Below are positions 30,352 through 63,391 of a stretch of DNA of 64,000 nt, piece by piece. Positions within the stretch are counted from its first letter, which is position 1; the number at the start of each line of letters is the position of its first letter. The notes below the pieces were generated by a model. It worked only from the letters and a program-made list of their open reading frames with translations, did not search any database and was not told the origin of the DNA. A program made the position numbers and the translations under genes. Source of the DNA: Aulosira sp. ZfuVER01 (GTDB lineage Bacteria; Cyanobacteriota; Cyanobacteriia; Cyanobacteriales; Nostocaceae). The DNA is taken from assembly GCA_034530615.2 (NCBI GenBank), contig JAVRCV020000025.1, positions 128,001 to 192,000 of the forward strand. The letters run 5' to 3'.

Positions 30352-32544
30352 TTACCTGCGAGTTGTAGCAAGAGATGTCCTTGGTACATCAGATTCTTCG
30401 TTGAAATAGTAGTAACTATGGCTTTCATATTGAGGAATAACTGCGTTTACCACTTGTCCTAAGACATTCTGACCAGATTTTTCTAAAATATCATAAGCCA
30501 TAGCGGCGTTAACAGAATCAACTACTCCAGGACGAACTACAAACAAAACACCATCAGCCATTTGTCCCAATGTAGCTGCATCAGCTGCAACGTTTAATGC
30601 AGGAGCATCAATAATCACAAAATCGTAGTTGGCTGCAAAATTCTGCATTAAGGAAGCCATGCGTTTTGAGTCAAGTAGGGATGCTGGTGAGGGAGGTACG
30701 ACTCCAGCAGTCAAAACATCCAAATTATCCATATTATCCATAACTTTGTTGGTGGCTGTCTTGATTTCAGCCTCTCCCACAATCACATTGCTGAGACCTT
30801 GACTATTAGTTAAGTCCCAAATTAGATGCTGAACTGGACGGTGCAAATCTCCATCTACGAGTAAGACTTTACGTTCCATCTGCGCCATTGCTAAAGCTAA
30901 ATTAGCAGCTATTGTTGACTTACCTTCTCCTGGAACAGAACTGGTAACAACAATCACCTTTAATTCTTTATCAGCACTCATGAACTTTAAGTTTGCCCGC
31001 AACATTCGATAAGCTTCACTAATTGGTGAGCGAGGCATATCTCTTACAACCAGCCTAGAACTATATAGTTCGCCCTCTTCTTGACTTAGAGAACTTAGTC
31101 TAGACTGATTAAACAAAGGAATTACACCCAAAAGAGTAAATCCTAGTAATTCCTTAGCCTCATCAACCGTCTTAATAGATTTATCCCTGAGTTCTAAAAT
31201 ATACATAGTTACTAAAGCAGCCAAAGTAGCTAGTAAGCCTGCACTTAGGTATGAAAACATAGGAGAAAAAAGAGGCTTGTCAGGAACTAGGGCTGCGGAA
31301 ACCAAACTGGCGTTACCTATGTTCTGATTTTCTGCTATTTGGCTCTCTTGTAGTTTTTGTAGCATTAGTAAATAGGTAGATTGGGATGCTTGAACTTTGC
31401 GTTCTAGCTGGCGCTGTTGTTGTTCCAATCTAGGAAGGGTTTGGAGCCGTTGTCTATAGTCTGCTTGTAATTTGGATAAGGTTGCAACTTGATTCATTAA
31501 ACCCAGACGGGTTGACTGTAATCTGACAAGGTCTCCGCTAAGTTGTTGTTGCAGTGCTCCAATCTGTAAATTGCCATTTACTAGTGGTTGATTTGTTCCT
31601 GCAACCTGTTGGATTCGTTGTTGTAGTATCTTTTTTAAGGCTGCTAACCTATCTTGTGAACTAATGATTTCTGGATGGTCATCTCGCAAAACAGTTCGCC
31701 TAGCTGCAAGTTGAGACTCTAGCTGTTGTATTTCTTTAAGAAGATCTTGAACCCCAGAAGATTGGCTAATAGAGGTCATCACTACTGCTCGTTGGGAATT
31801 CATACTCAATTGCTGGCGTAAATCCTCAGACTGAGCATTGATATTGGCAATTTGAGATTTAGAGCCATCAATTTGCTTTTGTAAGTCTGTAACGACTCCT
31901 ATTGCTTGAGTTGCTTCTTCCTGTAAAGAAACAACTTTGTTTCTATCTTTAAAGATTGCTAACTCAGCTTCTGCTTTCCTAACAATTGATTCAGCATTTG
32001 GTAGTTCCTTTTGCAGAAACTGCCGGGCGGATGCTGCTTCTTTGCGCCGAGATGCTACGTTGTGTTCTAAATAAACATCCGTCATCGTATTAACAACCTG
32101 TGCAGCTATTTCAGGGTTGCTATCTTTGTAAGTAATTTGGATGATATCTGAACCTTTAATATCTTTGACAGTAAGATTCTTCAAGAAGTCATTGACATTT
32201 AAGGGCTTCCCTTGCGCATCTTTCAACTCAAGTTTATCTATGGTTTGTTGTGCAAGGGGTGCAGAACGTAGAATTTCTGCCTCTGTATTTAAAGGACTCG
32301 TTTTATTATCTTCTGTTAGTGCTTCTAACTTACCTATCTCTGCACCTACTCCTGTTAATGAAGGGATAGTATTTGTTCTTTGAAGCAATATCTTTGCCTC
32401 TGATTCATAAGTAGGTTTTTTCAAAGATAAAGCCACTACAGAAATCAGAAAAACTGGGACAAAAACTTTGAGGCCAGGTTGCCAACGGCGCTTCAGTATT
32501 TGCCAATATTTATCAAAGGTAAAAAAAGTTGCTTGTGTTTGCAT
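30352..32544 (-). CDS. wzc: Polysaccharide co-polymerase/tyrosine autokinase (Wzc/GumC family)
   Basis: Wzz-like N-terminus with two TMs and coiled coil; EAYRMLRANL; Walker A SSVPGEGKS; DGDLHRP; IIDAP; Tyr-rich tail (YESHSYYY). Confidence 0.93.
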   Translation of the reverse strand: MQTQATFFTFDKYWQILKRRWQPGLKVFVPVFLISVVALSLKKPTYESEAKILLQRTNTIPSLTGVGAEIGKLEALTEDNKTSPLNTEAEILRSAPLAQQTIDKLELKDAQGKPLNVNDFLKNLTVKDIKGSDIIQITYKDSNPEIAAQVVNTMTDVYLEHNVASRRKEAASARQFLQKELPNAESIVRKAEAELAIFKDRNKVVSLQEEATQAIGVVTDLQKQIDGSKSQIANINAQSEDLRQQLSMNSQRAVVMTSISQSSGVQDLLKEIQQLESQLAARRTVLRDDHPEIISSQDRLAALKKILQQRIQQVAGTNQPLVNGNLQIGALQQQLSGDLVRLQSTRLGLMNQVATLSKLQADYRQRLQTLPRLEQQQRQLERKVQASQSTYLLMLQKLQESQIAENQNIGNASLVSAALVPDKPLFSPMFSYLSAGLLATLAALVTMYILELRDKSIKTVDEAKELLGFTLLGVIPLFNQSRLSSLSQEEGELYSSRLVVRDMPRSPISEAYRMLRANLKFMSADKELKVIVVTSSVPGEGKSTIAANLALAMAQMERKVLLVDGDLHRPVQHLIWDLTNSQGLSNVIVGEAEIKTATNKVMDNMDNLDVLTAGVVPPSPASLLDSKRMASLMQNFAANYDFVIIDAPALNVAADAATLGQMADGVLFVVRPGVVDSVNAAMAYDILEKSGQNVLGQVVNAVIPQYESHSYYYFNEESDVPRTSLATTRR

Positions 32545-32646: not shown

Positions 32647-33807
32647 TCAAATCTGTTTAGTCAGATGAGTTTTTCTAGCGCTATAGTGAATTGCGGCGAT
32701 CGCTTCAATTACCCGAGCTAAGTCTTCGCCTGTAAGATTAGATCCAGAAGGCAAGCACAAGCCACGTGAGAATAAATCTACCGCTACAGCATCGCCAATA
32801 TATTCACAACCAGCAAACACAGGCTGTAGATGTAAGGGTTTCCATACTGGACGCGCTTCAATTTGCTTTTCGACCAGTGCTAATCTGACTTGTTCTCGAT
32901 CTGCACCAAATTTCTGAGGATCTATCGTTAAGCAGGTTAACCAGCGAGTAGCACGGCCAAAGCTAGCTTCTGGCATAAATTCTATTCCCGGAAGATGTGC
33001 TAAAGCCTGTTGATAAATCTCAAAGTTACGTCGTCTAGCAGCCACTCGCTCGCTCAGAACTTGTAATTGACCGCGACCAATACCTGCCAAAACATTGCTG
33101 AGGCGGTAGTTATAACCTATTTCTGAGTGTTGATAATGGGGAGCCGGATCGCGGGCTTGAGTTGCTAGAAAGCGGGCTTTTTTGACTAAATCTGGGTCAT
33201 CTGACACTAACATCCCGCCGCCAGATGTGGTGATGATTTTATTGCCGTTGAAGGAGTAAATCCCAATTTTCCCAAAAGTTCCCGGAGTTTGGCCTTTATA
33301 GGTAGCACCTAAAGCTTCCGCCGCATCTTCAATTAAAGGAATTTCATAGCGATCGCAAGCTTTGAGAATCGGCTCGATATCTGCACTTTGCCCGTATAAA
33401 TGTACCAGCACGACTGCTTTGGGTAATTTGCCAATGCGAGTGCGGTGTTCTAAGGCTTCTTGCAACAAATCGGGATTCATGTTCCAAGAAGTGCGATCGC
33501 TATCGATAAAGACTGGTTTTGCACCCAAATAAGTAATCGGATTAGCGCTAGCAGCAAACGTCAAGGTCGAACAAAAAACATCATCCCCATAGCCAACACC
33601 AACTAATTGCAAAGCTAAATGCAGTGCTGCGGTTCCAGAACTGACGGCGGCTGCATGGCCTGCACCGACTACTTGACAAAATTCTTGTTCAAAAGCATCT
33701 ACATGAGGGCCTACAGGGGCGATCCAGTTAGTTTCAAAGGCTTGTTTGACGAATTCTAGTTCGCGATCGCCCATGTGGGGAGTTGAAAGAAGAATTTGTT
33801 TAGTCAC
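32647..33807 (-). CDS. DegT/DnrJ/EryC1/StrS aminotransferase (PglE/EpsN-like)
   Basis: SSGTAALHL, IEDAAEALG, SFNGNKIITTSGGG (PLP lysine), GYNYRLSN, LCLPSG. Confidence 0.93.
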   Translation of the reverse strand: MTKQILLSTPHMGDRELEFVKQAFETNWIAPVGPHVDAFEQEFCQVVGAGHAAAVSSGTAALHLALQLVGVGYGDDVFCSTLTFAASANPITYLGAKPVFIDSDRTSWNMNPDLLQEALEHRTRIGKLPKAVVLVHLYGQSADIEPILKACDRYEIPLIEDAAEALGATYKGQTPGTFGKIGIYSFNGNKIITTSGGGMLVSDDPDLVKKARFLATQARDPAPHYQHSEIGYNYRLSNVLAGIGRGQLQVLSERVAARRRNFEIYQQALAHLPGIEFMPEASFGRATRWLTCLTIDPQKFGADREQVRLALVEKQIEARPVWKPLHLQPVFAGCEYIGDAVAVDLFSRGLCLPSGSNLTGEDLARVIEAIAAIHYSARKTHLTKQI

Positions 33808-33882: not shown

Positions 33883-34503
33883 CTAAGAAACTTCTCTAAT
33901 CACTCGGGCAGGCACTCCTGCGACGATGGTTTTGGGTGGAACATCTTTCCTGGCTATTGCCCCCGCACCAACAGTAGACCAAGCTCCAACGCGAACACCA
34001 GGAAACACAACGCTACCCAGTGCCAGAAATGCACCCTCTTCAGCAGCTGCACCCCCTGCTAGATGGGACACAGCTATATGTACATAATCTCCGACAAAGC
34101 AGTCATGATCGACGCTTGCCTTAGTATTAAGAATTACATGAGAACCAATTTGCGCATAAGGCTGGACTATTGCACCAGCACAAACAACTGTACCTACACC
34201 TAATGAAACTTCCGGGTGAACCCAAGCAAACGGATGAACCACGGTCATCCACTCAAAATCGAGCTTTTCTGCTAGATGCTTGCGTACTGCGTTAGATCCT
34301 ATGCCCAGGATTGCATGAGAGCAGCTTTGAGAGGTCAACTCACTTACTGCTCCAATAACGGGGATGTTAAAAATCTGGCTACCCCACGTTGTTGGGTTAT
34401 CGTCATAAAAACCTACTACCTTGTGTCCCGCAGCAATCAGCGTACTTGCTACAACTTTGGCATGACCTCCCGCTCCAATTACCCCTATTCTTGAGTTACT
34501 CAT
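33883..34503 (-). CDS. Sugar N/O-acetyltransferase, PglD/NeuD family (left-handed beta-helix)
   Basis: GAGGHAKVV, hexapeptide repeats, VDHDC, VGAGA...GVPARV; start at MSNSR (34503). Confidence 0.9.
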   Translation of the reverse strand: MSNSRIGVIGAGGHAKVVASTLIAAGHKVVGFYDDNPTTWGSQIFNIPVIGAVSELTSQSCSHAILGIGSNAVRKHLAEKLDFEWMTVVHPFAWVHPEVSLGVGTVVCAGAIVQPYAQIGSHVILNTKASVDHDCFVGDYVHIAVSHLAGGAAAEEGAFLALGSVVFPGVRVGAWSTVGAGAIARKDVPPKTIVAGVPARVIREVS

Positions 34504-35194
34504 ATACTTTTTTCTTTTTGCTCCTAGTTGCTGCATTACTTGAGAACAAATTTTCTTATAGCGGCGATTACGATCTTCGCTCTTACTTTAGATAGATATT
34601 TACCAGAATTTTGTAGTTTTGATATTTCTCTATTCAATAAAATTGAATGAGTTTTCTCATTTTCTCTTCATCATATTGATCTGAAGGCTGAACTACAGCC
34701 ATACTAGATTCTCTGCAATTGCCAGGGGTTCCCCAAATAGTGTTACTTCTTCAATTTCAGGCAGATGTCTCGATCGAGACGATGCTTAAGATTATTTATT
34801 GCAGAAAACCTACTATATAAGCTGCATTAGCTGCCAGCGTACCGATGATTTATTGGAGTTTAGATTCTGTTTTGCAGTTTTTTCAATAATTATAAATTGA
34901 TAGGGGATATTATGAAAATTCTTAAAGAATCATATATGTCCCCTATCAAATTTATCATAGTGCTGTTCAGAATCATTAAAAAAAACTTACTGATGACTCA
35001 TTTACTATTAAAAATTAGACTCCTTCAATCATTACCATTGATGATACACACATGTAATTTTTTACTCTCTAGAGTAGCATTTTATGGACTATGGCTGCTA
35101 AGAGTGAAATTTTATGGTTAGTATTTGGTTACTAATAGCCTCAGCAGCCGTGGCAACAAAGCTCTTGTGCGTATTTGAGCTATATGCCTTGGTC

Positions 35195-38100
35195 TTAAAT
35201 GGCAAGATGCGTTTGTCTTGGTATCAGCTCTAATAGATTATTAGGAGCAGCTTGCTCAATTTGAAACTTCTCAATCTCCTGGGCAATTCCCGGTACGGTG
35301 GGAGATCGGAACAAGCTAATCAAGGGTAAGTTGACATTAAACGCCGATCGCAATTCCGCAATTAATGTGACTGCAACTAGGGAATTGCCCCCCAAATCAA
35401 AGAAGTTGTCTGTAGTTCTCACTTCCGAGACTTGAAGCACTTTCTGCCAGATTTCAATTAGGGTTTGCTCAATTTGGTTTTGAGGTGTTGTTGTCTTCAA
35501 AGCCTCGTCATCCTGGCGTACCATGATGGGAGCAGGCAATGCCTTGCGGTCAACTTTATTGTTGGGGGTAAGTGGAAATGCTTCCAAGAAGACGAAGTTA
35601 GAGGGCACCATATACTCCGGCAATTGGGAGAGTAAATATTCTCGCAAGTTGGCATTGGCGGTTTGATTCCCTGGTTGTGGGAGTAGATAGGCGACAAGGC
35701 GCTTGTCTCCAGGCACATCTTCACGAACCACAATCACGGCTTCCCGGACTGCCTCGTGTCGGCTTAAAATCGTCTCAATTTCTCCCAGTTCAATCCGATA
35801 ACCCCGCACTTTTACCTGAAAGTCCATGCGTCCCAGAAACTCCACATTGCCATCCATGCGGTAAAGAGCCAAGTCTCCAGTACGGTAAAGGCGTTCTTGG
35901 GGATTCGTGCTGAAGGGGCTGGGGATAAACCTCTCCTGGGTTAACTCCGGTCTGTTGAGATAGCCGCGAGTCACTCCTTTACCACCGATGAGTAGTTCAC
36001 CTGCTACCCCAATGGGAACAGGTTGCTGGTTCTTATCCAGGATATATAATTCGGTGTTGGCGATCGCTTTCCCAATGGGAACCACCCCATTCACTTCGGC
36101 CAGGGTATGGGTTGCAGACCAGATGGTGGTTTCTGTGGGGCCGTACATATTATGAACTTGCCCGGGAATAATCTGTTGGAGTTGGTTGGCTAGGGCTTCG
36201 GTAAAGGCTTCACCGCCAACCATCATGGTATGGATCTGTCCGATTGCCTCTCTCGTCGTGCTATCGGCAATCAGCATACTAGCCATTGATGGGGTGCATT
36301 GCAGATGAGTAACTTGATGCCGCTTGATGAGTGCAGCTACAGAGTTATCTTGTGTCTGTGCTTGATTTGCGATTTGGCCATTGGCTTGTGCTTTCAACTG
36401 ATTCAGCAGTGGCAATTGCGCTAATACTTTTTCTGTCTCCACGCCATAATCAATTAGACAGGCAATTTCATCGACATCAATGCCTTTGATGCGATCGACC
36501 ATCTGCAAACAGGTTTCAACTGTGCCAAACAAACCGCTGGTTTCAAAGTAGCGTTCAAAGGAGAAGTCCAACACCTCATCCATATCTTGCTCAGACAGAT
36601 GAGATACGGAAAATTGACCGTTGTTGTTGGTAGTCTTCTGCTTGAAGGTAGGGAATGACCAAGCTGCTTTTTTAATCAGATCGAGGGAACTGCCCAGGTA
36701 ATGCCGCATCGGCTGACGGACAATCTCTTTGACTGTATCATTATTTTCCCCGACGAAAGTGTGCAGCATCAGGCTGACAGTTCCCTTGCCGGGATGACCA
36801 TTTTCTGTCCATGCTTGCCGATAAATGGCAATTTTGGCGGCTAACTCCTCAAGACTTTGTCCTAGCAGGTGGGTCAAAATATGATAGCCTTTGGCTCCTG
36901 CCATTTGGAATGTTTCCGGATTGCCCGCCGCTGTCACCCAAACTGGGAGTTCGGGTTGAATGGGACGAGGAAGTGTCTGCACTGCCACAATTTCTCCCTT
37001 ACCGTTGGGATAGTTGACAGTTTCCCCACGCCAGAGTGCCCTGACCTCCTCAATTTGCTTGAACATGATGTCTTTCCGGTTCCCAAAGGTTTCCGGGCGC
37101 AGCACAAAGTCATTGGGTTGCCAACCAGCAGCGAAGGAGATACCAACTCGACCGCCGGAGAAGTTGTCTACTACAGACCAATCTTCGGCAATGCGTACTG
37201 AGCTATGTAATGGAGAAACACAACTACCAGCGCGCAGCTGAATCTGGTTGGTGACTGTGGCGATCGCCGCGTTGGTTAGGGCTGGGTTTGGGAATAAGCC
37301 ACCAAAGGCATGGAAGTGGCGTTCGGGAGTCCAGATGGCTTTAAATCCATTGGTATCAGCAAACTTGCTACCTTCAAATAACAGACGATACTTTGCGGCG
37401 GCATCTTCTCCTTGTTCGTGGCTGGAGAAGTAAAACAAACTAAAATCTACAGTTTTTGATTCATTTTGCAGCTTTAGCGTTGGCGAAGTAGAGCGAGCGC
37501 GTTCTTCCTTGGCATTATAGATGACAACCTTAAATCCTCGTGCCAGAGTCCAGAAGAGTTCCAGTACGGAAATATCGAAGGATAAACTGGTGACAGCCAA
37601 CCATACTCCTGGTGGGTCGTGGGCAATTACACTATCCATCCCGGTAAAGAAATTGACCACATTGCCATGCTCTACCATTACCCCCTTAGGCTTGCCAGTC
37701 GAGCCGGAAGTGTAGATGATGTAGCTCAAATTCTCAGGTTTGACCCCACTCTTGGGATTGGTGGTTGGTTGTTGGGCAATTTCTCCCCACATTGTATCTA
37801 TGGGAATGATGCGGGCATCATGTTCAACAACTAAATTGGGAATCAACTTCTGCTGCGTCACAATGACTGGAGTTTGAGAATCTTGCAGCATGAAGGCCAG
37901 CCGATCTTGGGGAAAATCAGGATCGAGGGGCAGATATGCTCCGCCTGCTTTGTGGATTGCCAGTAAAGCGACCATCATTTGGTGCGATCGCTCTATGTGC
38001 AGACCTACCAGGACATCGGGGCCAACTCCACACAGCCGCAGATAGTGGGCTAGTTGATTGGCTTGTGCATTCAATTCGCGGTAGGTGAGTTGGCGATCGG

Positions 38101-39868
38101 CAAAAGCAATAGCGATCGCGTCCGGCGTACGGGCTACTTGCTGCTCAAATAGCTCATGAATACAGAGCTCGCTAGGGAAGGGTTGTGCTGTCTGGTTCCA
38201 CTCCAGCAAAATTTGCTGCTGTTCGGCAACCGAAAGTAGTGGGAGTTGCTCTAAAGATTGTTCGGGATGCTCTATGCACGCAGCGATTAAACTCTGAAGT
38301 TGCTGGACAATCGCACCACTGTAAAACTCATTAATGGCCCCAGTATGTACCAATTCTGGTAGGCTACCATCTTCGTAAGCAACGAAGGCAATGGATGCAT
38401 TGAGATGCTGCCAATCCAGTTGATCGGGACTTGGCGCTAGAGCGATCGCTACTGGCAGAAAATTATGGCGATCGTCATCTTGTAGTTCTGGATAACGTCT
38501 CAAGAGGCTATTTCTAAAGCTACCCAGCCGCGATGTCCGCTTTAGATCTGCTTCTAGGCGTTCTTGGAATTGATTGAATGTCTCCTCCGCCTTCACGTGA
38601 ATGCGGATCGGCACTCGTTGGGCAAATATTTCTGGGGCAATGCTTCGCTGTGCGTTAGTTTGCAGCCCCAAGTCAAATTCTGGCTCTGTTGTTAGTCGCG
38701 CACAGTAGGTGGCAAACATCGTTAACAGAGATTTCGGCTCTACCTGTTGAGTTGGCAGCGAGATGGAATAACGTTGCAGCGAACTATCTACCATTTGACT
38801 AGATAGTTCAACTGGTAAATAAGGATGCTGAAACGGAGCTAATTTCATCAACCGTTCTGCCCATACCGACTCATGACGACAAATGGCCGCATTCCGCTTG
38901 GTAATTGCATCTCTGGTTTCGGCATCAATTATAGGTAAAACATTCCCGACTTGCACGCCATAGTCTTCGATCAAGCTGTCTTCAGAAAGGTCTTTGCCAT
39001 TTAAAGTAGTTAAATTACTCAACTGCACAGCACCATCTACGGTGGCAACATACAGCCCATCTGCATCGAGTTTCAGCACCTGTCCGGGAATGCCGTGGGA
39101 AGTTTTGATTAAACGAGCAGATCCTACAGCAACCACTCCTCCTGGCAACCAGATTTTGGGCAGACCTAGTTGGTTGCGAACTGGCCCAAACTCTAGTGCC
39201 CTTACCAAGTTACAAATATCTTTGCTATTGACATCAAATGATATCAGTGCGGCTGAAGGTGGGCGATGGCTGGGGCCAAAATAACTCCGTTGAGATAGAT
39301 CTTGGGAGTAAGGCTGTACCAGATCCATTGTTAGTTCCGTTAACAGTTCCGCAAAAGAGCTGACGGCGGCATCGAAACAGCGAGTATTCAGATTAAATAC
39401 GGTATCATCTGCTAAAATTGGCACTTCTTTCTGTTTGAAGATGCGCCCCCCATCAATTTCGCAGGTAACTTCATGCCAGGTAACAGCATGATTAGTTTCA
39501 CCATTTAGTAAAGCCCAAGAAGTTGCATACAAACCGGCATACTTTGGCAATGGTGAGTCGTGGTAGTTAATGGTTGCTTTGCGTGCCTTGGCAATAACGT
39601 CAGCTGGTACGATCCACTTGACGTTATTAATGCTGAAAAGATAATCGTACTCGCTACCCAAAAGCTGTTCTTGAAAAATAGATCGAGAAGCCGCGTGGTT
39701 GATGCCATGTTCCTCAGCCCACTTTTGTAAGGAATTATCTGTTGAATAAACTCCCAGCACTTGGCAACCTTTCTGTAACAGGATTTCCAAGCAACTTAAT
39801 GGCAAAGCACCATCACCGACTACAAAACAGGAAAAGCTGGAGATTGGTATTTCTTTCACCAAGTTCAT
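35195..39868 (-). CDS. Stand-alone NRPS-like protein: formyltransferase - truncated condensation domain - adenylation domain interrupted by a luciferase-like (MupA/Atu3671-type) monooxygenase - PCP
   Basis: Formyltransferase INYHDSPLPKYAG, TWH, DGG; A-domain cores LTYREL, YTSGSTGKPKG, FDISV, NMYGPTE, GELLIGG, YRTGD, GRMDFQVKVRGYRIELGEIE, NNKVDR; LLM insert FSLFYF...WTPERHFHAFGG...PNP between A4 and A5; PCP FFDLGGNSL; no thioesterase. Confidence 0.92.
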   Translation of the reverse strand: MNLVKEIPISSFSCFVVGDGALPLSCLEILLQKGCQVLGVYSTDNSLQKWAEEHGINHAASRSIFQEQLLGSEYDYLFSINNVKWIVPADVIAKARKATINYHDSPLPKYAGLYATSWALLNGETNHAVTWHEVTCEIDGGRIFKQKEVPILADDTVFNLNTRCFDAAVSSFAELLTELTMDLVQPYSQDLSQRSYFGPSHRPPSAALISFDVNSKDICNLVRALEFGPVRNQLGLPKIWLPGGVVAVGSARLIKTSHGIPGQVLKLDADGLYVATVDGAVQLSNLTTLNGKDLSEDSLIEDYGVQVGNVLPIIDAETRDAITKRNAAICRHESVWAERLMKLAPFQHPYLPVELSSQMVDSSLQRYSISLPTQQVEPKSLLTMFATYCARLTTEPEFDLGLQTNAQRSIAPEIFAQRVPIRIHVKAEETFNQFQERLEADLKRTSRLGSFRNSLLRRYPELQDDDRHNFLPVAIALAPSPDQLDWQHLNASIAFVAYEDGSLPELVHTGAINEFYSGAIVQQLQSLIAACIEHPEQSLEQLPLLSVAEQQQILLEWNQTAQPFPSELCIHELFEQQVARTPDAIAIAFADRQLTYRELNAQANQLAHYLRLCGVGPDVLVGLHIERSHQMMVALLAIHKAGGAYLPLDPDFPQDRLAFMLQDSQTPVIVTQQKLIPNLVVEHDARIIPIDTMWGEIAQQPTTNPKSGVKPENLSYIIYTSGSTGKPKGVMVEHGNVVNFFTGMDSVIAHDPPGVWLAVTSLSFDISVLELFWTLARGFKVVIYNAKEERARSTSPTLKLQNESKTVDFSLFYFSSHEQGEDAAAKYRLLFEGSKFADTNGFKAIWTPERHFHAFGGLFPNPALTNAAIATVTNQIQLRAGSCVSPLHSSVRIAEDWSVVDNFSGGRVGISFAAGWQPNDFVLRPETFGNRKDIMFKQIEEVRALWRGETVNYPNGKGEIVAVQTLPRPIQPELPVWVTAAGNPETFQMAGAKGYHILTHLLGQSLEELAAKIAIYRQAWTENGHPGKGTVSLMLHTFVGENNDTVKEIVRQPMRHYLGSSLDLIKKAAWSFPTFKQKTTNNNGQFSVSHLSEQDMDEVLDFSFERYFETSGLFGTVETCLQMVDRIKGIDVDEIACLIDYGVETEKVLAQLPLLNQLKAQANGQIANQAQTQDNSVAALIKRHQVTHLQCTPSMASMLIADSTTREAIGQIHTMMVGGEAFTEALANQLQQIIPGQVHNMYGPTETTIWSATHTLAEVNGVVPIGKAIANTELYILDKNQQPVPIGVAGELLIGGKGVTRGYLNRPELTQERFIPSPFSTNPQERLYRTGDLALYRMDGNVEFLGRMDFQVKVRGYRIELGEIETILSRHEAVREAVIVVREDVPGDKRLVAYLLPQPGNQTANANLREYLLSQLPEYMVPSNFVFLEAFPLTPNNKVDRKALPAPIMVRQDDEALKTTTPQNQIEQTLIEIWQKVLQVSEVRTTDNFFDLGGNSLVAVTLIAELRSAFNVNLPLISLFRSPTVPGIAQEIEKFQIEQAAPNNLLELIPRQTHLAI

Positions 39869-39995
39869 AATTTATTTATCCTCGTAAATATAAAAAAACT
39901 TTTTAGATATACATTGAAAATTTAGGATAGTTAAAAAAACGATACACAGGTATCAGCGTTAGATGGCATCTAGGTTTCAGGTTGGCGGATTGGGA

Positions 39996-41123
39996 TTATG
40001 CCAATATGTATTGCCGAATGCGATCGGCAATTTTTTGGCTAGCACTGTCAGCTGCCACTAGTTCAATCTGTTCTGAGGTAGACACCCCTAAACCCAATTC
40101 CACTGCTTTGCGAATCTGTTCTAACTGCCAAATAGATCCTTGCGTCACTCGATCTGTTGTTCCCAGAGAGCGCAACATTCCCAAAGCAACGACATCAATG
40201 GCTATCCGATCTGTACTTGCCAGAATCACATTTGCAGCAACCTTTTTCCCAGAATCCGGCCCTCCGTCTACAAAGGCTTCGACACCATCCATTAACACCA
40301 GAGTAGGCTGATAGACGGCATTGATTTCCGCGATCATCGGTTGCATGTGCGAGGAAGTATGGAGATCGCGCATATAGTTAAATGGATCGCCGGGAACATA
40401 CTTCGCTACCATGCCTACAGTATTTTTCAGGGACAAGGTATAATGCGCTCCCCGATGAGTTTTCAGACAACAGGTATTGACAACTGCTTCTGCCTCTAGA
40501 ACTGGCCGCGCAAAGGCGAAACCTTCCTTCCAGTGGGTTCCTTTTGCGGAAAAGTATTGCCACTGCTCGGTAGACAGCTCATCAAACACGATCGCCTCTA
40601 GCCCATAGCGATCTGCCAGTTGAAACACTCCTTTGAGTTCCATTGCTTGACGGGTGTTTGCCATGCCGGCGCGATCGCCCACAGTAATTTTCCCAGCGCC
40701 AGCATTTTGTAGCTCTTGCACCAAGGCTTCTAACATTTTGCTATCTGTGGCTGCCGGAGCTGGATCGGCAGTATTAAAGTTAGGCTTGAGGAAAACTTTT
40801 TTTCCCTGAATACCGCTTGGCTGCAACAAGTCAAGAGCGCGGCGGGTTCCAGATACCCGATCTTCACTGTGGACTATGACAACTTTCCTAATGCCAGTAG
40901 GTTGTGGTAAGGGCACTACTCTCATGGCATCGGTTTGCTTTGCATGAGCAGCATCCAGAATCGATCCAGATGTTTTCAGCGTGTGAATAACGGAGCTAGG
41001 AGAAAAACCAGATGTTTTCAGGTTGGAAAAAATATAGGGAGAAATTACTGCTCCCGCTGTCAGTCCAGCCAAGCGAAGGAAATTACGCCTTTTTTGTTTG
41101 AGATTGAGAGAGTGAATATGCAT
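39996..41123 (-). CDS. DUF362 domain protein with twin-arginine signal
   Basis: KRRNFLRLAG Tat motif; LKPNFN, CLKTH, TLSLKN.VG, GGP, D..AID motifs. Confidence 0.82.
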   Translation of the reverse strand: MHIHSLNLKQKRRNFLRLAGLTAGAVISPYIFSNLKTSGFSPSSVIHTLKTSGSILDAAHAKQTDAMRVVPLPQPTGIRKVVIVHSEDRVSGTRRALDLLQPSGIQGKKVFLKPNFNTADPAPAATDSKMLEALVQELQNAGAGKITVGDRAGMANTRQAMELKGVFQLADRYGLEAIVFDELSTEQWQYFSAKGTHWKEGFAFARPVLEAEAVVNTCCLKTHRGAHYTLSLKNTVGMVAKYVPGDPFNYMRDLHTSSHMQPMIAEINAVYQPTLVLMDGVEAFVDGGPDSGKKVAANVILASTDRIAIDVVALGMLRSLGTTDRVTQGSIWQLEQIRKAVELGLGVSTSEQIELVAADSASQKIADRIRQYILA

Positions 41124-41376
41124 AACACTGCTTGTGAAGGAAATGCTTTCTGTCTAGTTATTATGAGGAATCTGATTTGCTCCCGGCCAATACTCGCAAA
41201 GTAGGCGATTCGATTAGTGCCTAGATTCGCAAACATCAAATCTTATGCCTCTAGCAGAATTTAATCACCGAATTTTAGATTTTCAATTAAGAGAATTGAA
41301 AGTTCAAAATTTAAAATTTTAAAATGCCACAAAGCTAGCAAATCTACTTATGTAAAAAATCTAAAATCTAAAATTG

Positions 41377-42033
41377 TTAAATGCGTATGAAATTGCTTGG
41401 CACGTCAAACTTTGCAGTTTCTCCTGGAGAGTAGACTGCCCGATCTTCTGTATGACTAAGAACGATCGCGCCTGCACCAATAATATTTTCTTTACCGATA
41501 TTAATATAATTGCGGATAGTAGCATTCAAACCAATAAAAGTATATTCTCCTATGGTTGCTCCACCACCAATCACGACATCAGAGGTTAGAAAGCAATGAT
41601 CCTCGATCGTACAGTGATGACCGATATGATTTGCTCCTAAGAGCAGACAGTTGTTGCCAATCGAAGAGAAAGGTTGAATAATGCTATGTTCAAGAATGAA
41701 GGAGTTTTCGCCCAATTGCGTACCGTGATAAGATGCTTTAGAACTGATGTATGAAATACAGCTATAGCCACGCTTTTTGGCATTAAAATATTTTTCTGCT
41801 CGTAATTTGTTGACATTTTTATAACTAATTGCAATGAACAATTTGTACTCAGAAGGTGGATAATACTTCTCAAGTTTCTCATAAGGGACAAGTGGTAGAC
41901 CATTGAAGCTCTCTGCTTGAAGGTAAGCTTCATCAACAGTAAATCCAACTACCTCATGTTCAGAATCATGTTTGAGATAGTAGTGAACTATTTCTGCAAT
42001 CTCACTAGTTCCAAAAATAACAACTTGCGCCAT
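41377..42033 (-). CDS. Acetyl/acyltransferase, NeuD/PglD family (left-handed beta-helix)
   Basis: VIFGTS, IQPF..IGNN, HIGHH..IEDHCF, IGAGA; start at MAQVV (42033). Confidence 0.88.
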   Translation of the reverse strand: MAQVVIFGTSEIAEIVHYYLKHDSEHEVVGFTVDEAYLQAESFNGLPLVPYEKLEKYYPPSEYKLFIAISYKNVNKLRAEKYFNAKKRGYSCISYISSKASYHGTQLGENSFILEHSIIQPFSSIGNNCLLLGANHIGHHCTIEDHCFLTSDVVIGGGATIGEYTFIGLNATIRNYINIGKENIIGAGAIVLSHTEDRAVYSPGETAKFDVPSNFIRI

Positions 42034-42047
42034 AAGACAATTTTCTC

Positions 42048-43061
42048 CTACTGTTGATGAACGATTAAGCGATCGCACTTGGAACTTATAACGTTAGCTG
42101 CGAACATCTGCCAACTTGGCTCTGGTTCTACACCATTAGCCCAAGCTATTAACATTGCTGGCAGATTTGCTCCAGCACAATGTGAAAATGGATATCCTCC
42201 ACCAAAGCGGGGGTTCATTTCTAGAACATAGCAACCTCTAGAATTGACAATTACATCACAGTCAAGATTGCCAATATGACTGAGTTTACGGGCTATTTCT
42301 TGACCAATATTTTGAAGTTTTTGCTCTGCGACTGTGACTGCGCGATCGGTCTCTCCCGCACGCATACCCAGTTTACGTTTCACAAAAGTTGTCACATATT
42401 CGCCATCCAAATTATTAATGATATCTAGACCGTATTCTTCACCTAATACTCGCTCTTGGATTAGAATACAATTCTCGATATCACATGCACTAACATCCGC
42501 GAGAATTGTGCGACATATTTTTTTCTGTACATACCGATATGCTAATTCTAATTCTTCATCATCTTCGGGATATTCAATTCCAATTGAGGCGCTTCCCCAG
42601 CGAGGTTTGACTACTAAAGGAAAAGTTATTTCTCCTTGTTGAATAGCTTCTTGTACTGCTCTGACAGAAAGATAAGTTTTTGGAGAAGAAAGACCGATAT
42701 TCTCTAAAAATTGAAATGTGGCAAACTTATCAAAACAGATATTGATAACTTCTGGAGAGGAAACAACTGGAATAGTGCCGATTGTCAGAAAGCGATCGCG
42801 TTGTTCTGCTAGGTACGGTAATTCTAAATCGTTCAACGGAATTAACAAGCGTACCTGTTTTTGCTGACAGATATCCAACAAGTTATCGAAATAATCGCTG
42901 TGATGGATAGGCGGTAACAAAAAATATTCATCTGCTTCTTGTAACGCTGGTGCTTCCAGATTAGAATCAGTAGCAAACACTTGTCCTCGATTTCCTAGCG
43001 CTTCTTGGAAGAATTTCACTAGATAGTTGCGTCTTCCCGCACAAGTCAATATGACATTCAT
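42048..43061 (-). CDS. ATP-grasp ligase (carbamoyl-phosphate synthase-like/PylC-like)
   Basis: TCAGRR, CFDK, VKPRWGSAS, IQE...EY, LEMNPRFGGGYP. Confidence 0.9.
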   Translation of the reverse strand: MNVILTCAGRRNYLVKFFQEALGNRGQVFATDSNLEAPALQEADEYFLLPPIHHSDYFDNLLDICQQKQVRLLIPLNDLELPYLAEQRDRFLTIGTIPVVSSPEVINICFDKFATFQFLENIGLSSPKTYLSVRAVQEAIQQGEITFPLVVKPRWGSASIGIEYPEDDEELELAYRYVQKKICRTILADVSACDIENCILIQERVLGEEYGLDIINNLDGEYVTTFVKRKLGMRAGETDRAVTVAEQKLQNIGQEIARKLSHIGNLDCDVIVNSRGCYVLEMNPRFGGGYPFSHCAGANLPAMLIAWANGVEPEPSWQMFAANVISSKCDRLIVHQQ

Positions 43062-43076
43062 ATCAGGTTTTACCTC

Positions 43077-44315
43077 TTAGAGGACATAAGTAGAAAACAC
43101 ATCCTGAGAAGTTTCTCGCCGTCTGATTAGTGTGTACTCGTCCTGGATATAGTCGTAGCTAATAATGGGGGGATTGGGGCGAATAAATGGTGGTTTAAAG
43201 ACGACAGTATAAGCACCCATATTCTCAAAAACTATATAATCTCCTATACCTATTTCCCCAGGATATTCTTTGTATAAACAATCATGTTCCATACAAGTAT
43301 ATCCAACTATATCGATACTTCCTGAGAGTTTTTTGTGGTTGGTAATTTCTTCATTTTTGTAAACTTTTAAAGACAGAGTTTTATCAGTTCCGGTTGGTTT
43401 GATGTTGTGAATACTACCCACTACTAGAGCAATTTGGCGCGATCGCACTGTTTTTAAACCTACAACTTTAGCTGCAAATTTCAACACATCGGAAACTACA
43501 GCTACTCCTGGCTCAATAATCAGTTCTGGGACAGAATTGGGATATCTACTTTTTAATTGTGGTGCAACTGCTGCGGCGTATTCCTGATAATTAGGAATAT
43601 AAAAATCAAATTGATTTCTTAAATCGTCAGTCATCTTGCCAAAGAAACCACCACCGATATCAAGAAATCTTGGCTGTTTATCCTGGAAATAATAATCAGT
43701 TAATTCCAAAATTTTCTGAGTACGGCGAGAGTATGATTCGGTGCTTCTTTCGGATGTAGAAATGTGGCAATGTAGTCCAGCAACAGTACAATTATTTAAT
43801 TGTGTCAAGGTTTTGAATGCGCGATCGAGTTCGCCTGCTTCGACATCAAAGCCAAATCGAGATATCCGGCTGTTCCCGATATCAAAATTACACCTCAATC
43901 CTACAGCTATGTTCTGTTCTGGTAATCTTTTTGCCAAAGCTGTAACTATTTCAACTTCTTCTAAACAATCCAAGTTGACTATAGAACCAGCCAAGATGGC
44001 TTTTTCGATATCTTGCTGATGCTTCAGCGGGCCATTAAAAATAATTCTGGTTGGTGGTACGCCGATCGCGATCGCTAAATCATACTCCATTTGGGAAACA
44101 ACTTCGGCATACCCTCCCATAGAATGCACTGTTTGGCATATCTTGGGAATATAGTTAGTTTTGTAAGAATATCCCAAGTTGGTATTGGGATAAATTGAAC
44201 GGAAACTCTGGAGAAACTCTTTATAGTTATGTTCAAATTGTCTGAGATCCAGAATAAAAAAAGAATCTCCGTATTCTTTTTCTAAGTGATGCAGTGTTTG
44301 CCAAGAAAGTGCCAT
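43077..44315 (-). CDS. PLP-dependent fold-type III decarboxylase (LysA/BtrK-like)
   Basis: YSYKTN (PLP lysine), FNGPLK, SRFG, GLHCH, DIGGGF, IEPG, CMEHD, GAYT. Confidence 0.9.
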   Translation of the reverse strand: MALSWQTLHHLEKEYGDSFFILDLRQFEHNYKEFLQSFRSIYPNTNLGYSYKTNYIPKICQTVHSMGGYAEVVSQMEYDLAIAIGVPPTRIIFNGPLKHQQDIEKAILAGSIVNLDCLEEVEIVTALAKRLPEQNIAVGLRCNFDIGNSRISRFGFDVEAGELDRAFKTLTQLNNCTVAGLHCHISTSERSTESYSRRTQKILELTDYYFQDKQPRFLDIGGGFFGKMTDDLRNQFDFYIPNYQEYAAAVAPQLKSRYPNSVPELIIEPGVAVVSDVLKFAAKVVGLKTVRSRQIALVVGSIHNIKPTGTDKTLSLKVYKNEEITNHKKLSGSIDIVGYTCMEHDCLYKEYPGEIGIGDYIVFENMGAYTVVFKPPFIRPNPPIISYDYIQDEYTLIRRRETSQDVFSTYVL

Positions 44316-44381
44316 TTTTTAACTGTTTTTTACTAAAGACAACCCATCTTCATCAAAAGCATCCAGCGAAATCTTTGGCTT

Positions 44382-45407
44382 TTATACAGTTGCCATACTC
44401 TTGATTTCCTCCAGAGCATCAAACTTTGCTGCCATGAAGTTTGGTCGAACTTTCAGCCAATTTGGATCGGCTTCTTTACCACTTGCCCAAGCAATTAGTG
44501 CGGCGGGTAGATTAGCTCCTGCTTGATGAGAAAAAGGATAGCCTCCACCCAAACGCGGATTCATATCTATGACAAAACAACCGTCTGCTGTTACAATTAC
44601 ATCGCAGTCGAGGCTACTAATATGACCAAGCTGCTGACCAATAGATGCACCTAAATCTTTTAACCGTTTATCATCAACTACGATCGCAGCATCTGTACTA
44701 CCAGCTAGCATAGAAAGCTTACGTTTAGCAAAAGTAGTTATATAAGAACCTGTTAAGTTATTAATGATATCAAGACTGTACTCTTGTCCATACAGCTTTT
44801 CTTGAATGAGAACGCATCTTTGAGGATCTTTTGCACTTACGTCTGCCAAGGATGTGCCAAAAATAAGCTTTTTAGCAAACTGATAGGCCATCTCCATTTC
44901 CTCATCGTCCTGAACGGAGAAAATACCAACTGAAGCACTTCCCCACCGAGGTTTAATAACTAAAGGGAATTTAATCTCTCCTTGGCTAAGTGCTTGCCGT
45001 GCGTCTGACAATGAAATATAGGTTTTTGGGACTGAAATACCCCAGTTTGTTAATAATTCAAAGGTTGCCCACTTGTCAAAGCAAGTATCGATTACTTCTG
45101 GAGATGAAATGACTGGAAAAGTCCCAACTTCGAGAAAGCGATCGCGCTGTCTTGCCAACAAGGGAAGTTCGAGATCGAGCAAAGGAATTAACAGACGTAC
45201 CTGATGTTGCTTACATATATTGACAATTATGTCAAAATAATCGCTATGTTTAACAGACGGTACAACAAAACCCTTGTCAGCTTTTTGTAGTGCTGCTGCA
45301 TTGGGATTAGCATCACAAGCCAGCACATATCCATTTTTAGCAAGTGCATCTTTGAAAAAGTTAATTAAGTCAATCCGACGACCGGCACAGGTAATTACGA
45401 TATTCAT
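44382..45407 (-). CDS. ATP-grasp ligase, paralog of 42048-43061
   Basis: TCAGRR, CFDK, IKPRWGSAS, IDMNPRLGGGYPFSH. Confidence 0.9.
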   Translation of the reverse strand: MNIVITCAGRRIDLINFFKDALAKNGYVLACDANPNAAALQKADKGFVVPSVKHSDYFDIIVNICKQHQVRLLIPLLDLELPLLARQRDRFLEVGTFPVISSPEVIDTCFDKWATFELLTNWGISVPKTYISLSDARQALSQGEIKFPLVIKPRWGSASVGIFSVQDDEEMEMAYQFAKKLIFGTSLADVSAKDPQRCVLIQEKLYGQEYSLDIINNLTGSYITTFAKRKLSMLAGSTDAAIVVDDKRLKDLGASIGQQLGHISSLDCDVIVTADGCFVIDMNPRLGGGYPFSHQAGANLPAALIAWASGKEADPNWLKVRPNFMAAKFDALEEIKSMATV

Positions 45408-45645: not shown

Positions 45646-46314
45646 CTAATTGCCCAGAAACTCTTCCATAGTGTCATGATTAGCTTGGCTAATCCCTTCT
45701 TTTTTAACTACTTTCCATGCCGTCAGGAAAAGTATTTTCAGGTCAAGCCACCAACTCCAATTATCGACATACCAAACATCTAGTTTAAATTTTTCTGGCC
45801 AAGAAATAGAATTGCGACCGTTAACTTGTGCCCAACCAGTAATCCCCGGCTTGACTTCATGACGGCGTGCTTGTTCAGGAGTGTAGCGCTCCAGATACCT
45901 GACCATTAAAGGACGCGGGCCAACGAAACTCATATCACCCTTGAGAACATTCCACAGTTGGGGAAGTTCATCCAAACTCGTTTTGCGCAGAAATTTACCG
46001 AAAGATGTTAGGCGTTTTGCATCAGGCAGAAGATTACCCTTGGCATCGCGCTCATCGGTCATAGTGCGAAACTTATAGAATTTGAAAATACGTCCGTTTT
46101 TACCAGGACGGGGTTGGGCGAAAATCACTGGACTACCCATACGGTAATAAATAGCGATCGCCACAAGCAACAGTACAGGAAAACATAAAATTAAAGCGAT
46201 CGCAGCTATGAACCTATCTAATATAGATTTGATTAATCTGCTTTGTTTGTTAGGGCAATTGCCATAAAATTTTTGAGTTTTCATAGATGTATCCACAGAT
46301 TGAAGATTTGTCAT
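45646..46314 (-). CDS. Undecaprenyl-phosphate sugar phosphotransferase (PglC/EpsL-like priming enzyme)
   Basis: [49 protein letters not shown]; exact start uncertain. Confidence 0.93.
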
Positions 46315-46401
46315 AACGCACGAGTCCAAAAAATTTCACAAAAACCACTATTTTTACTGCCTTGTATCTTTTGCGTAGCTGTTGTCTGAGCCAAGTCATA
46401 A

Positions 46402-50755: not shown

Positions 50756-52384
50756 TTATTTCCGCGAAAGCCTTTCTATCTCTTCGCCCAATTGCCTTCG
50801 GACAGATTCCAAGACGTTTGGATCGCGTGTCCAATTCTTCCAATCACGACCGACTTTTTGAGTTACTCCGAGTACCCATTTCTGGCGGCCAAGTTTTTTA
50901 AGTATCTCGATATATTCGTAATCTTCTACCCCTTCCCTCACCCACTTGAGTCGCATGGAAGGTACAACGCCTTTGACACCTACCTGTTTGCCAGGATAGA
51001 CTAACATTCCTTCACCAGGATAATAGTCATCCTTGTCAGAATGAGTTTGAACATCTTTCCAGGGTTGTTTTGTCCACAAATCAACTTGCCAGTATAAAAC
51101 TCCTGTTAACCCAAGACTTTGATTAATAAAGCCGTGAGGAATTCTATAATTTATGGGTTGAAAATCTATTTGCCATTTAGGAGAGTAACCCTCTTGTACC
51201 AAAGCGTTGTAAAACCAGACTTTATCTCCTTTTTGTAAAACCTCAGATATTCGCTTGGGAGCCGCATTGTACATCGCTGGCAATACTACCCAGATGTCTA
51301 CAGCAGAACGTCCAGTACCAGAACCATCATCATACAGAGCAGGTTTTGGGGCCATTGCTATAACAGTTGAAATTCCTGCTTTGTGAAAATTTCGTGCCCA
51401 CTGCTTGACTGGTTCAATCAGATTTGAGCATTTATCAATCTCATCGGCATACCTAGCGAACAGCAACAGATCTGATTGATGTATGCTGGCAGATTTGCGG
51501 ATCTCATCTACAGAAGGAGGTGGCTTCATTGCGCACTGCTTGAGATCGGCTCCACTCCAGAAAGGAAGACGCAGGGAGCGTAATCCCCATTTATCAATCA
51601 GCTCGCGCTGATCTTGTGGATCTACCCTTGAAGGCATGATTTTGTGTTTTAGCAGTTCCACCATAGCGCTCTTAGTTTTTTCTTCCCAGAAAGCAAAGGA
51701 AGAATTGAGTGATGGCTTAAGAGGTAACTGAAAATTCCAAACCTGCAACAGAATTTTGCCTGTCGTCACTCCTCGATTGCTGCTAATCGTGAAAGTACCC
51801 TGATATTTACCAGGGCTAGCATTGCGGGGTACAAACACATCTACCCAAATTGGTTGGTTATTCCCAGCTTTCAGGTTGAATGGAACTGCGTCTAACTCAA
51901 AACCTTTGAGATTGGCTTGAGTTTCAGGATTAACAAATGGAATTAGTCCATCAGCATACCATCCCGAACCCAAAGGTTGGTTGTTACTGCCTCTCTGCTT
52001 AGGACTCGACTGACTAACGTAAACGTAATGTTCTCGGTAGAGAGTAATGTTGTTCTTGGCAATTATTTGATTGTTGGGGCCAGACAAATCTGAGACTGAA
52101 ACATTCACATTTGTGAGATCGCTATTTGATGCTCGAATACCAATCTGAAATGGTTCGTATTCACCTCGAGCTGCATAAAGCTGAATCTCGGTTGAACTCC
52201 CTGGCCGCTCGTCTTTTCCTATCCTTTGTAGACCTGAAGTCACCCAGACTATAGGAGTTGTTGAAGAGTTTGCTAATAGCTTTACACTTGAACAAGCATA
52301 TAAAGCCAATACTGTTCCTAGTAGGCAGATGATAATTTTATATTTGCTAATTGCTCTTGTATTTATTTTAAAAATAAGAGACAT
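50756..52384 (-). CDS. DUF4091/GH123-like glycoside hydrolase domain protein, probable lipoprotein
   Basis: Lipobox-like LYAC; AARGEYEPFQ, QPIWVDV.VP, ADE, GEGMLVYPG, SMRL..VREGVEDYEY. Confidence 0.8.
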   Translation of the reverse strand: MSLIFKINTRAISKYKIIICLLGTVLALYACSSVKLLANSSTTPIVWVTSGLQRIGKDERPGSSTEIQLYAARGEYEPFQIGIRASNSDLTNVNVSVSDLSGPNNQIIAKNNITLYREHYVYVSQSSPKQRGSNNQPLGSGWYADGLIPFVNPETQANLKGFELDAVPFNLKAGNNQPIWVDVFVPRNASPGKYQGTFTISSNRGVTTGKILLQVWNFQLPLKPSLNSSFAFWEEKTKSAMVELLKHKIMPSRVDPQDQRELIDKWGLRSLRLPFWSGADLKQCAMKPPPSVDEIRKSASIHQSDLLLFARYADEIDKCSNLIEPVKQWARNFHKAGISTVIAMAPKPALYDDGSGTGRSAVDIWVVLPAMYNAAPKRISEVLQKGDKVWFYNALVQEGYSPKWQIDFQPINYRIPHGFINQSLGLTGVLYWQVDLWTKQPWKDVQTHSDKDDYYPGEGMLVYPGKQVGVKGVVPSMRLKWVREGVEDYEYIEILKKLGRQKWVLGVTQKVGRDWKNWTRDPNVLESVRRQLGEEIERLSRK

Positions 52385-52473
52385 TTTAAATTATCCTAAT
52401 GATGCTTCAAGAAACTAGAATCAGTAAAAATGTTGTAAAAAGGTTTATTTTTATAAGTTGCTAATTTTTTCAG

Positions 52474-54423: not shown

Positions 54424-54488
54424 ACTTGGTTTACCTCTTTTGTAATTACAACTACTTAAGTTTCTGTTAGCAAAGTTAGAAATATTGT

Positions 54489-62593: not shown

Positions 62594-63346
62594 CTACTTT
62601 CTTCTTAAGATTTTTATTAAAGATAAATATAGTTGTCCCTTCAGAGTTATAGGGCGAGCACAGTTATATCTTTTAACAACTTCTCCTCCGAACTTCTCTT
62701 TAAACTTATTAATTCCTAATTTTTGATTATCTGTATTTCCTGTATACCAACCTCCAAAATCATACTTAGAAATTCCTGCATTTTTGAATCGCAGAATATC
62801 TTGCCAGTGATGATAAAGATTTGCTCGTCCTAACATTGACTGATAAGAAGTATCGCTATCATTTTTAAGTGATGCTGAATGCAGAAGATAAGCGCATTCT
62901 TTATTACGATAATAAGTATGCCAAATTAGAGGATTACCATCGTTTGACTTGATCTGCGAAATGTCAATCAACCCAGAATCTGCACGACTTTTGAGTATAG
63001 TTCTATTAATCTTTTTTAGACCTTTTTGCACGGCAAATACATCATAAAAATCTGCAAATTCGTTGAGAATATTAGATTCGGGATTTTCCCAATATTCATA
63101 AATAACTCGATCTCTTTCACCTGCTCGCTTAATCTTATACTTGTCATTTTTACCAATATTGAGCCAGATTTCATCTTGAGTTTTTTGCAGATCTATCAAT
63201 CTTGTATGGCATTCTTCATAGGTAACGTTATTAATTGGATAAGTCCGTTGTTTGTATAAGAGTACATCTACATTTCCCATCTCTTGGGTTTCTGCGTCAA
63301 ACCAGACTTCTCCCATTAACAATAGTTTGTTTTTGAAAATATACAT
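62594..63346 (-). CDS. FemAB/GNAT-like acyltransferase
   Basis: IDL......IW....KN..YKIKRA, ANLYHHW..I..FK..G...YDFGG, GINKFKEKFGG. Confidence 0.7.
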   Translation of the reverse strand: MYIFKNKLLLMGEVWFDAETQEMGNVDVLLYKQRTYPINNVTYEECHTRLIDLQKTQDEIWLNIGKNDKYKIKRAGERDRVIYEYWENPESNILNEFADFYDVFAVQKGLKKINRTILKSRADSGLIDISQIKSNDGNPLIWHTYYRNKECAYLLHSASLKNDSDTSYQSMLGRANLYHHWQDILRFKNAGISKYDFGGWYTGNTDNQKLGINKFKEKFGGEVVKRYNCARPITLKGQLYLSLIKILRRK

Positions 63347-63391
63347 ATTGTTTATCTCATTTGTTGGAACATAATTAAACTGTATTTATGT

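Follow-up and report, generated by a model that had tools for sequence, protein, structure and literature searches.

The butirosin pathway attaches an aminoacyl group, 4-amino-2-hydroxybutyryl, to an amino sugar with an ATP-grasp ligase, a fold-III pyridoxal phosphate (PLP) decarboxylase, a flavin monooxygenase and a carrier protein; besides BtrJ, BtrK and the carrier BtrI, it includes BtrO, BtrH and BtrG. Decarboxylation of glutamate or aspartate carried by an acyl carrier protein (ACP) is described as established for BtrJ/BtrK and for CtaD/CtaF (PMC11350588). In the Bacillus cereus route to UDP-yelosamine (Pat, Pyl), the ATP-grasp enzyme Pyl is described as amidating a UDP-4-amino sugar with no carrier involved (Hwang 2014, cited in PMC11257628), and aspart-4-yl and N-acetylglycyl groups are among the substituents reported on Qui4N (PMC10609480). 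Here we describe a cassette of six genes at positions 35195–45407 of a 64,000-nucleotide stretch of the genome of the cyanobacterium Aulosira sp. ZfuVER01 (contig JAVRCV020000025.1, positions 128,001 to 192,000; the whole stretch is referred to below as the window). The cassette lies in an exopolysaccharide (EPS) gene cluster and probably acylates the amino sugar derived from PglE. In the reading that we favor, to which we assign a probability of roughly 0.5, two modules encoded in the cassette would act in series to build the N-acyl substituent of a bacillosamine-type starter sugar of a Wzy-dependent EPS.

Open reading frame (ORF) calling and family scans bore out the first-pass annotation of six intact, co-oriented genes between pglC and pglD/pglE, all on the minus strand. 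What we call module A consists of the fold-III PLP decarboxylase (DC; 43077–44315, PF02784 and PF00278) and an ATP-grasp ligase of the canonical type for its family (ATP-grasp 2; 42048–43061, NF009404, E = 5e-143). Module B consists of an acyltransferase of the left-handed beta-helix (LbH) NeuD/PglB/VioB family (41377–42078, likely start codon ATG at 42033; TIGR03570, above cut-off) and a single-module nonribosomal peptide synthetase (NRPS; 35195–39868). As in the yelosamine pathway, an ATP-grasp gene stands beside a sugar aminotransferase and a small phosphoglycosyl transferase, both in the window and at other loci, but the window adds a fold-III decarboxylase and the NRPS/LbH module. The scaffold genes of the PglF-PglE-PglD-PglC pathway to diNAcBac are likewise present, with the difference that the acylation step is widened into a variable multi-gene slot. 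In contrast to butirosin, the carrier of the window sits within a glycine-type, formylating NRPS and not in a stand-alone ACP such as BtrI, the two modules can occur apart, transfer is assigned to an LbH enzyme and the predicted product is a polysaccharide precursor; a general Pfam scan of 23 cluster proteins, made without searches using the BtrJ, BtrH and BtrG sequences, named none of these three. The cassette would be butirosin-like in outcome and is probably not a member of the butirosin pathway. Its apparent novelty would lie in an NRPS free of polyketide synthase (PKS) and unloaded by an LbH enzyme, joined with a yelosamine-like ligase and a decarboxylase, and a literature search that missed most subscription journals and supplements returned no characterised example of such a cassette.

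Distribution of the two modules

The family was surveyed by a DNA search of 389 genomes, in which one or two candidates were scored per genome and misses are possible, and the loci were then read. An NRPS orthologue was found in 15 genomes, DC with ATP-grasp 2 in 14 and both in six, the window being included in these counts. The DC/ATP-grasp pair occurs without the NRPS at 8 of its 14 loci and the NRPS without the pair at 9 of its 15; since each half occurs alone, the two appear as separable modules and not as one pathway unit. In genomes G724 and G469 the locus consists of nothing but pglC-DC-ATP-grasp-pglE-wzc, with no carrier gene seen, and in G020 of only pglC-LbH-NRPS...pglE, spread across two contigs, while G271 and G479 carry both modules and no pglD. 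These counts, together with the NRPS having its own glycine-type adenylation (A) domain and formyltransferase, speak against the single butirosin-type carrier pathway proposed in the first-pass annotation.

The proposed co-occurrence with polysaccharide genes held up well. There are 18 distinct cyanobacterial NRPS loci, comprising the 15 of the family, G320 and two Chamaesiphon genomes (in the wider phylum, 8 of 401 genomes matched at 75% or more), and 16 of the 18 sit with pglC and/or pglE/wzc. The view of the loci in G275 and G485 is limited by contig ends. Acylation of the amino sugar is still the best reading. Metagenome locus L182 was dropped as a probable duplicate, since it agrees with a G020 locus in content and identities. 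Weaker NRPS matches were not counted as orthologues; these include G643, whose 67% match is confined to the monooxygenase region, and G186, which on inspection is a PKS/NRPS cluster.

Twenty stretches were fetched to compare the interval itself, and 14 relatives' loci show both pglC and pglE. In 13 of these the interval holds GNATs, WbqC, PIG-L, PhyH, HAD, methyltransferases, a Rieske protein or ATP-grasps; formyltransferase and PglD genes also fill the slot in relatives. The pglC-pglE interval is thus a hypervariable tailoring slot. The flanks given for the cassette in the first-pass annotation are correct, but the "usual" amino-sugar block that it was said to interrupt is not usual, as a plain pglC-pglD-pglE order was found in only one of the 14 loci (G036). 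At L017:13952–15490, and also at L018, L078 and L098–L100, a 512-aa protein with Rieske and Rv3818-like domains adjoins pglE; we take it to be NamH-like, and it may make N-glycolyl sugars.

The decarboxylase and its ATP-grasp partner

The best PDB match to DC is the N-acyl-amino-acid decarboxylase FslC (7KH2, E = 3e-35), followed by diaminopimelate decarboxylase (2e-24) and BtrK (3e-16), so that BtrK, while of the same fold, ranks below both in this list of structure matches, which is not a tree. A C-MEHD motif is found in 93 of 120 DC homologues, and the methionine after the catalytic cysteine is common to DC and FslC. Because of this likeness and the shared methionine, we infer that DC would decarboxylate an amino acid whose side chain is already attached, in this case to a nucleotide sugar. 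The ranking of FslC over BtrK does not favor a butirosin-type decarboxylase, and a simple motif test of positions 157–196 kb of contig C25 turned up no carrier serine motif in any short ORF, that is, no stand-alone ACP in the cluster.

A wider survey of DC in GTDB genomes yielded 556 loci, of which the best 80, some coinciding with the family set, were analysed. These 80 come from many phyla; pglC/E/F or wzc is nearby in 57, pglC itself in 46, an ATP-grasp in 45 and an NRPS in six. In 27 the ATP-grasp is replaced by an HpcH aldolase and a class IV aminotransferase. These loci (L139–L181), in which DC-family genes and pglC stand with the aldolase and aminotransferase and almost never with an ATP-grasp, look like a route of aldol addition to a 4-keto sugar, transamination and decarboxylation to a branched amino sugar, which we would liken to shewanellose-type chemistry. 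No DC match was found in plasmids at 1e-40.

ATP-grasp 2 is most similar among PDB entries to 2PN1 (E = 5e-51). Four genomes have it without DC, beside a PALP enzyme or a 445-aa protein; the latter takes the place of DC at L093:10838–12175, L094 and L095 and has no Pfam match at 1e-4. Plasmid homologues of ATP-grasp 2 adjoin sugar aminotransferases in all three records opened. Sugar modules of the order aminotransferase-GNAT-PALP-ATP-grasp, with ATP-grasps 42–45% identical, occur on an Escherichia coli plasmid (L186:8584–12030) and a Sphingobium plasmid (L187:5920–10283).

The NRPS and its predicted product

Domain scans gave the NRPS the order formyltransferase, condensation (C) domain remnant, A domain split by a luciferase-like flavin monooxygenase (LLM), and peptidyl carrier protein (PCP), abbreviated F-C*-A(LLM)-PCP. 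The formyltransferase domain (38972–39613; PF00551 and PF02911) has its triad of N101, H103 and D139 intact, and the C remnant (38420–38626) matches PF00668 below cut-off (E = 9e-4) and has no HHxxxDG motif. The A domain spans residues 574–789 and resumes at ~1169 after the inserted LLM (residues 809–1159; 36392–37444, TIGR04020, E = 8e-154), and the PCP (residues 1468–1531; 35276–35467, PF00550, Ser1496) is followed by a tail of 26 aa and the end of the protein. A Pfam scan found neither a thioesterase (TE) nor a downstream C domain, in accord with the first-pass description of a single module ending in a PCP; that description did not mention the formyltransferase, the C remnant or the inserted monooxygenase. 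Among the best 120 homologues, 115 retain the formyltransferase triad and PCP serine, and ten have an additional, complete N-terminal C domain with HHxxxDG ahead of the formyltransferase (P0003–P0005, P0013, P0015, P0017, P0024, P0025, P0034 and P0036; also at L067:3–3893).

The A-domain code, read from motif positions, is DILQMGMIWK and is identical in 74 of the 120 homologues. The code of LgrA module 2, which activates glycine, differs from it, and this is neither for nor against a glycine assignment. The A domain is intact and glycine-type in all 17 cyanobacterial rows of an NRPS alignment, with DC present or absent; gaps at formyltransferase residues in these rows reflect truncated loci and not losses. 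Glycine-activating A domains interrupted by a monooxygenase (MOX) are of the MtaG/MelG type, with the terminal layout C-A(MOx)-T-TE. The window NRPS is like them in having an LLM inside an A domain that is Gly-type and almost identical in code, and unlike them in being a formylating starter with a degenerate upstream C domain and no TE, and not a terminal, amide-forming module. Four Gly-activating MOX domains are reported with the code DILQLGMIWK (PMC12283262), a single residue apart from that of the window. The nearest solved relative of the inserted LLM is PuwE (6KET, E = 3e-113), proposed to be an acyl alpha-hydroxylase giving a 2-hydroxy acyl chain (PMC4219810). On the strength of the Gly-type code, the formyltransferase and the PuwE-like LLM, the most likely activity of the NRPS is formation of N-formylglycyl-S-PCP with oxidation of an alpha-carbon; a hydroxyglycyl group could persist or may collapse to glyoxylyl.

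The same architecture, with a type I PKS as neighbour, occurs on alphaproteobacterial plasmids and in one of the four Chloroflexi matches opened. On the plasmids, 16 records (counted at 80% or more coverage) show 39–45% identity across at least 93% of the length, and all three opened records are polysaccharide loci. These F-A(LLM)-T proteins, annotated MupA/Atu3671, share the full architecture and polysaccharide context, but the window has no adjacent PKS, GT2 glycosyltransferase or phosphopantetheinyl transferase, and the partner of its NRPS is an LbH enzyme in the pglC-pglE slot.

The LbH acyltransferase as a possible link between the modules

The best PDB match to the LbH protein is perosamine N-acetyltransferase, with the catalytic histidine aligned. 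Its gene is ahead of the NRPS, directly or across the DUF362 gene, in all 18 orthologue loci. In the NRPS-adjacent LbH proteins the N-terminal loop, which in PglD takes part in acceptor binding, reads G[TS]SEIAE at all 8 loci with DC and GNxxxAE at all 9 loci without it. The DC-free proteins form one clade (support 87/94). An NRPS tree calculated without an outgroup for these 17 genomes rejects this clade (approximately unbiased test, p = 0.000167) and has three mixed sister groups: G020 with G000 (the window genome) and G003, G120 with G480, and G240 with G420, G271 and G479. The match of LbH type to DC presence holds in two gene orders, including one in which DC lies beyond the 4.6-kb NRPS. 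As the loop type follows DC and the NRPS tree is discordant, LbH type travels with DC and not with the NRPS, which suggests that the LbH enzyme recognises the product of module A and thus that the modules are coupled where both occur; the tie of the decarboxylase/ATP-grasp pair to the NRPS would run through this enzyme.

Optional genes and a lost third module

The two remaining genes of the cassette, ATP-grasp 1 and the DUF362 gene, are lineage-specific extras. ATP-grasp 1 (44382–45407; NF009404, above cut-off), a PylC-N/PRK12767 protein, is 59% identical to ATP-grasp 2 and was found at no other examined locus. It belongs to a four-member clade (support 100/100) that is changed at the family-conserved positions N12, Y13, R234, E237 and E281, and the consistency of these changes marks it as a maintained, diverged paralogue. 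The DUF362 protein (39996–41123; PF04015) carries a twin-arginine translocation (Tat) motif, KRRNFL, read by eye, and is encoded at 5 of the 15 family NRPS loci, each with DC. The six genes are therefore not a conserved unit. In a structure model of the DUF362 protein (pLDDT 98), the top five structural matches are all of the LarA fold (Z 16.0–18.4, root-mean-square deviation 3.1–3.8, 209–221 residues aligned; next match Z 5.6). DUF362 and LarA belong to the same Pfam clan, CL0471, a link already noted in PMC11770544. The genome holds larC and larE homologues over cut-off (C28:41269 and C15:181491), as do cyanobacterial controls, and a second, more distant DUF362 (C41:34741); that DUF362 proteins in cyanobacteria might use a nickel-pincer cofactor is an idea prompted by the fold and these genes.

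Downstream of the NRPS, in the 658-bp gap that precedes pglD, lies a remnant of an acyl-CoA ligase gene (34540–34824, minus strand), 74% identical over 227 bp, with indels, to the 3' end of a ligase gene in G120 (E = 7e-30). In relatives this ligase usually accompanies a FabH-like gene together with an ACP, a short-chain dehydrogenase/reductase (SDR) and pglD; the FabH-like gene is present in 10 of the 389 genomes, all of one genus and all with the NRPS, and in no NRPS-free genome. The decayed fragment indicates that the window genome once had the ACP-SDR-ligase-FabH module. The window's pglD-like acyltransferase gene (33883–34536, minus strand; PF17836, TIGR03570), which in relatives comes after FabH, may be a leftover of it.

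Cluster setting

The upstream edge of the slot is the pglC-like phosphoglycosyl transferase gene (45646–46329; PF02397, E = 3e-70), and beyond pglD lie the pglE-like DegT aminotransferase gene (32647–33807; PF01041, E = 9e-103) and wzc (30352–32544), all on the minus strand. According to family scans, the pglE-like gene, maker of the putative 4-amino acceptor, is the sole sugar aminotransferase gene in the cluster. A pglF-like gene, named by its likeness to a Pfam-typed relative, lies just outside the window (C25:192342–194381). The cluster is of the Wzy type. Besides wzc and wzy, it encodes four GT4 glycosyltransferases, a flippase resembling MurJ, a dehydrogenase and an epimerase for nucleotide sugars, and two Asn-synthase-like proteins. 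Further tailoring candidates are found at 50756–56231 and 62594–63994, where the genes encode a GH123-like protein, both of the Asn-synthase-like amidotransferases, and one protein each of the FemAB-like and GINT1_N kinds. No close paralogues of DC, LbH or DUF362 were detected in the genome at 1e-8. GC content is 48% in the NRPS and DUF362 genes and 38–41% in the LbH, ATP-grasp and DC genes, and by this measure the cassette does not stand out as a single block. A promoter and terminator scan returned 36 and 14 sites where chance alone would give 35.4 and 15.8, and so says nothing about co-transcription.

Proposed pathway and alternatives

In the proposed serial pathway, the PglF-like enzyme and PglE would provide UDP-4-amino-6-deoxy-HexNAc, the product typical of these families. 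ATP-grasp 2 would then link the carboxyl group on the side chain of an acidic amino acid to the 4-amine, using glutamate or aspartate, or 2-oxoglutarate followed by transamination, and DC would strip the alpha-carboxyl to leave an amine-ended 4-aminobutanoyl or beta-alanyl arm, all without a carrier. In module B, the NRPS would load and N-formylate glycine and probably hydroxylate its alpha-carbon. Since the NRPS has no TE or downstream C domain, the adjacent LbH enzyme is the candidate for unloading it onto an amine, probably that of the module A arm here and that of another acceptor in DC-free loci. PglC would start the repeat unit, and the glycosyltransferases, flippase, Wzy and Wzc would export the polymer. 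This explanation stands on which genes are present, on their intact motifs and co-occurrence, and on the discordance of the trees; the substrates and product are predicted. A fuller version, in which the LbH enzyme accepts an aminoacyl-PCP, the result is a short peptide-like side chain on bacillosamine and the Tat-exported, LarA-fold protein epimerises or cleaves the hydroxy-acyl group outside the cytoplasm, is doubtful.

Several observations weigh against the serial pathway, whose mechanism is predicted from genes and sequences. The likeness of ATP-grasp 2 to Pyl is one of gene context. The LbH forms of DC-free loci make up one clade of modest support, and a single genus contributes most loci; the points therefore lack independence, and few separate events lie behind them. 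The two Chamaesiphon loci have pglD-LbH-NRPS and then DC-ATP-grasp, and the DNA seen there, split over two contigs in one case, holds neither pglC nor pglE. The FabH-like gene is downstream at 10 of the 15 family NRPS loci and the window keeps only the relic, which means that the product of its NRPS could be different or incomplete. PglD, the LbH enzyme, two ATP-grasps and the FemAB-like protein (62594–63346) are more N-acylating candidates than one 4-amine needs, which allows for parallel or redundant acylation. The modules might accordingly work in parallel, A acylating the PglE sugar and B another amine or a fraction of the repeat units of a heterogeneous polymer, as the occurrence of each module alone and the several acyltransferases and two Asn-synthase-like genes of the cluster would allow; we consider this unlikely, given that LbH type changes according to whether DC is present, in conflict with the NRPS tree, and that the cluster has a single sugar aminotransferase.

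The relic is also the main ground for keeping the possibility that module B is partly vestigial. Its NRPS would normally feed a ketide extension, the partner being, we assume, a type I PKS in other phyla and discrete ACP, FabH and SDR proteins in cyanobacteria, and with the partner lost, module A or PglD would do the acylating. The PKS neighbours of alphaproteobacterial and Chloroflexi homologues and the restriction of FabH to NRPS-bearing genomes agree with this, but all catalytic motifs of the NRPS are intact and G003, G020, G271, G479 and G320 keep NRPS and LbH with no FabH at the locus, making it improbable. A butirosin-like carrier route, in which an ATP-grasp loads glutamate on the PCP, DC decarboxylates it, the LLM yields 4-amino-2-hydroxybutyryl and LbH transfers it, has in its favor the same enzyme classes, the ACP-bound precedent (PMC11350588) and the resemblance of the LLM to an alpha-hydroxylase. 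We regard it as very improbable in view of the DC/ATP-grasp loci without an NRPS (8 of 14 in the family, with an NRPS at only six of the best 80 wider loci), the uniformly Gly-type A domains, the closeness of DC to FslC and the lack of a stand-alone ACP in the motif test. We give equally little credence to a free small molecule or another modified glycoconjugate (lipopolysaccharide or glycoprotein) as the product in place of exported EPS; the two Chamaesiphon loci are detached from pglC/pglE, but the NRPS has no release domain and 16 of 18 loci lie within a wzc/pglC/pglE cluster.

Implications

The natural minimal loci, with module A only, module B only, or A and B together, are a ready experimental series. 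If the serial pathway is correct, two widespread orphans, the NRPS module and the decarboxylase/ATP-grasp pair, would gain a defined and testable product, and the LbH enzyme would be a release transferase delivering an NRPS product onto a nucleotide sugar. The cassette would also provide a genetic source for nitrogen-bearing substituents on cyanobacterial EPS.

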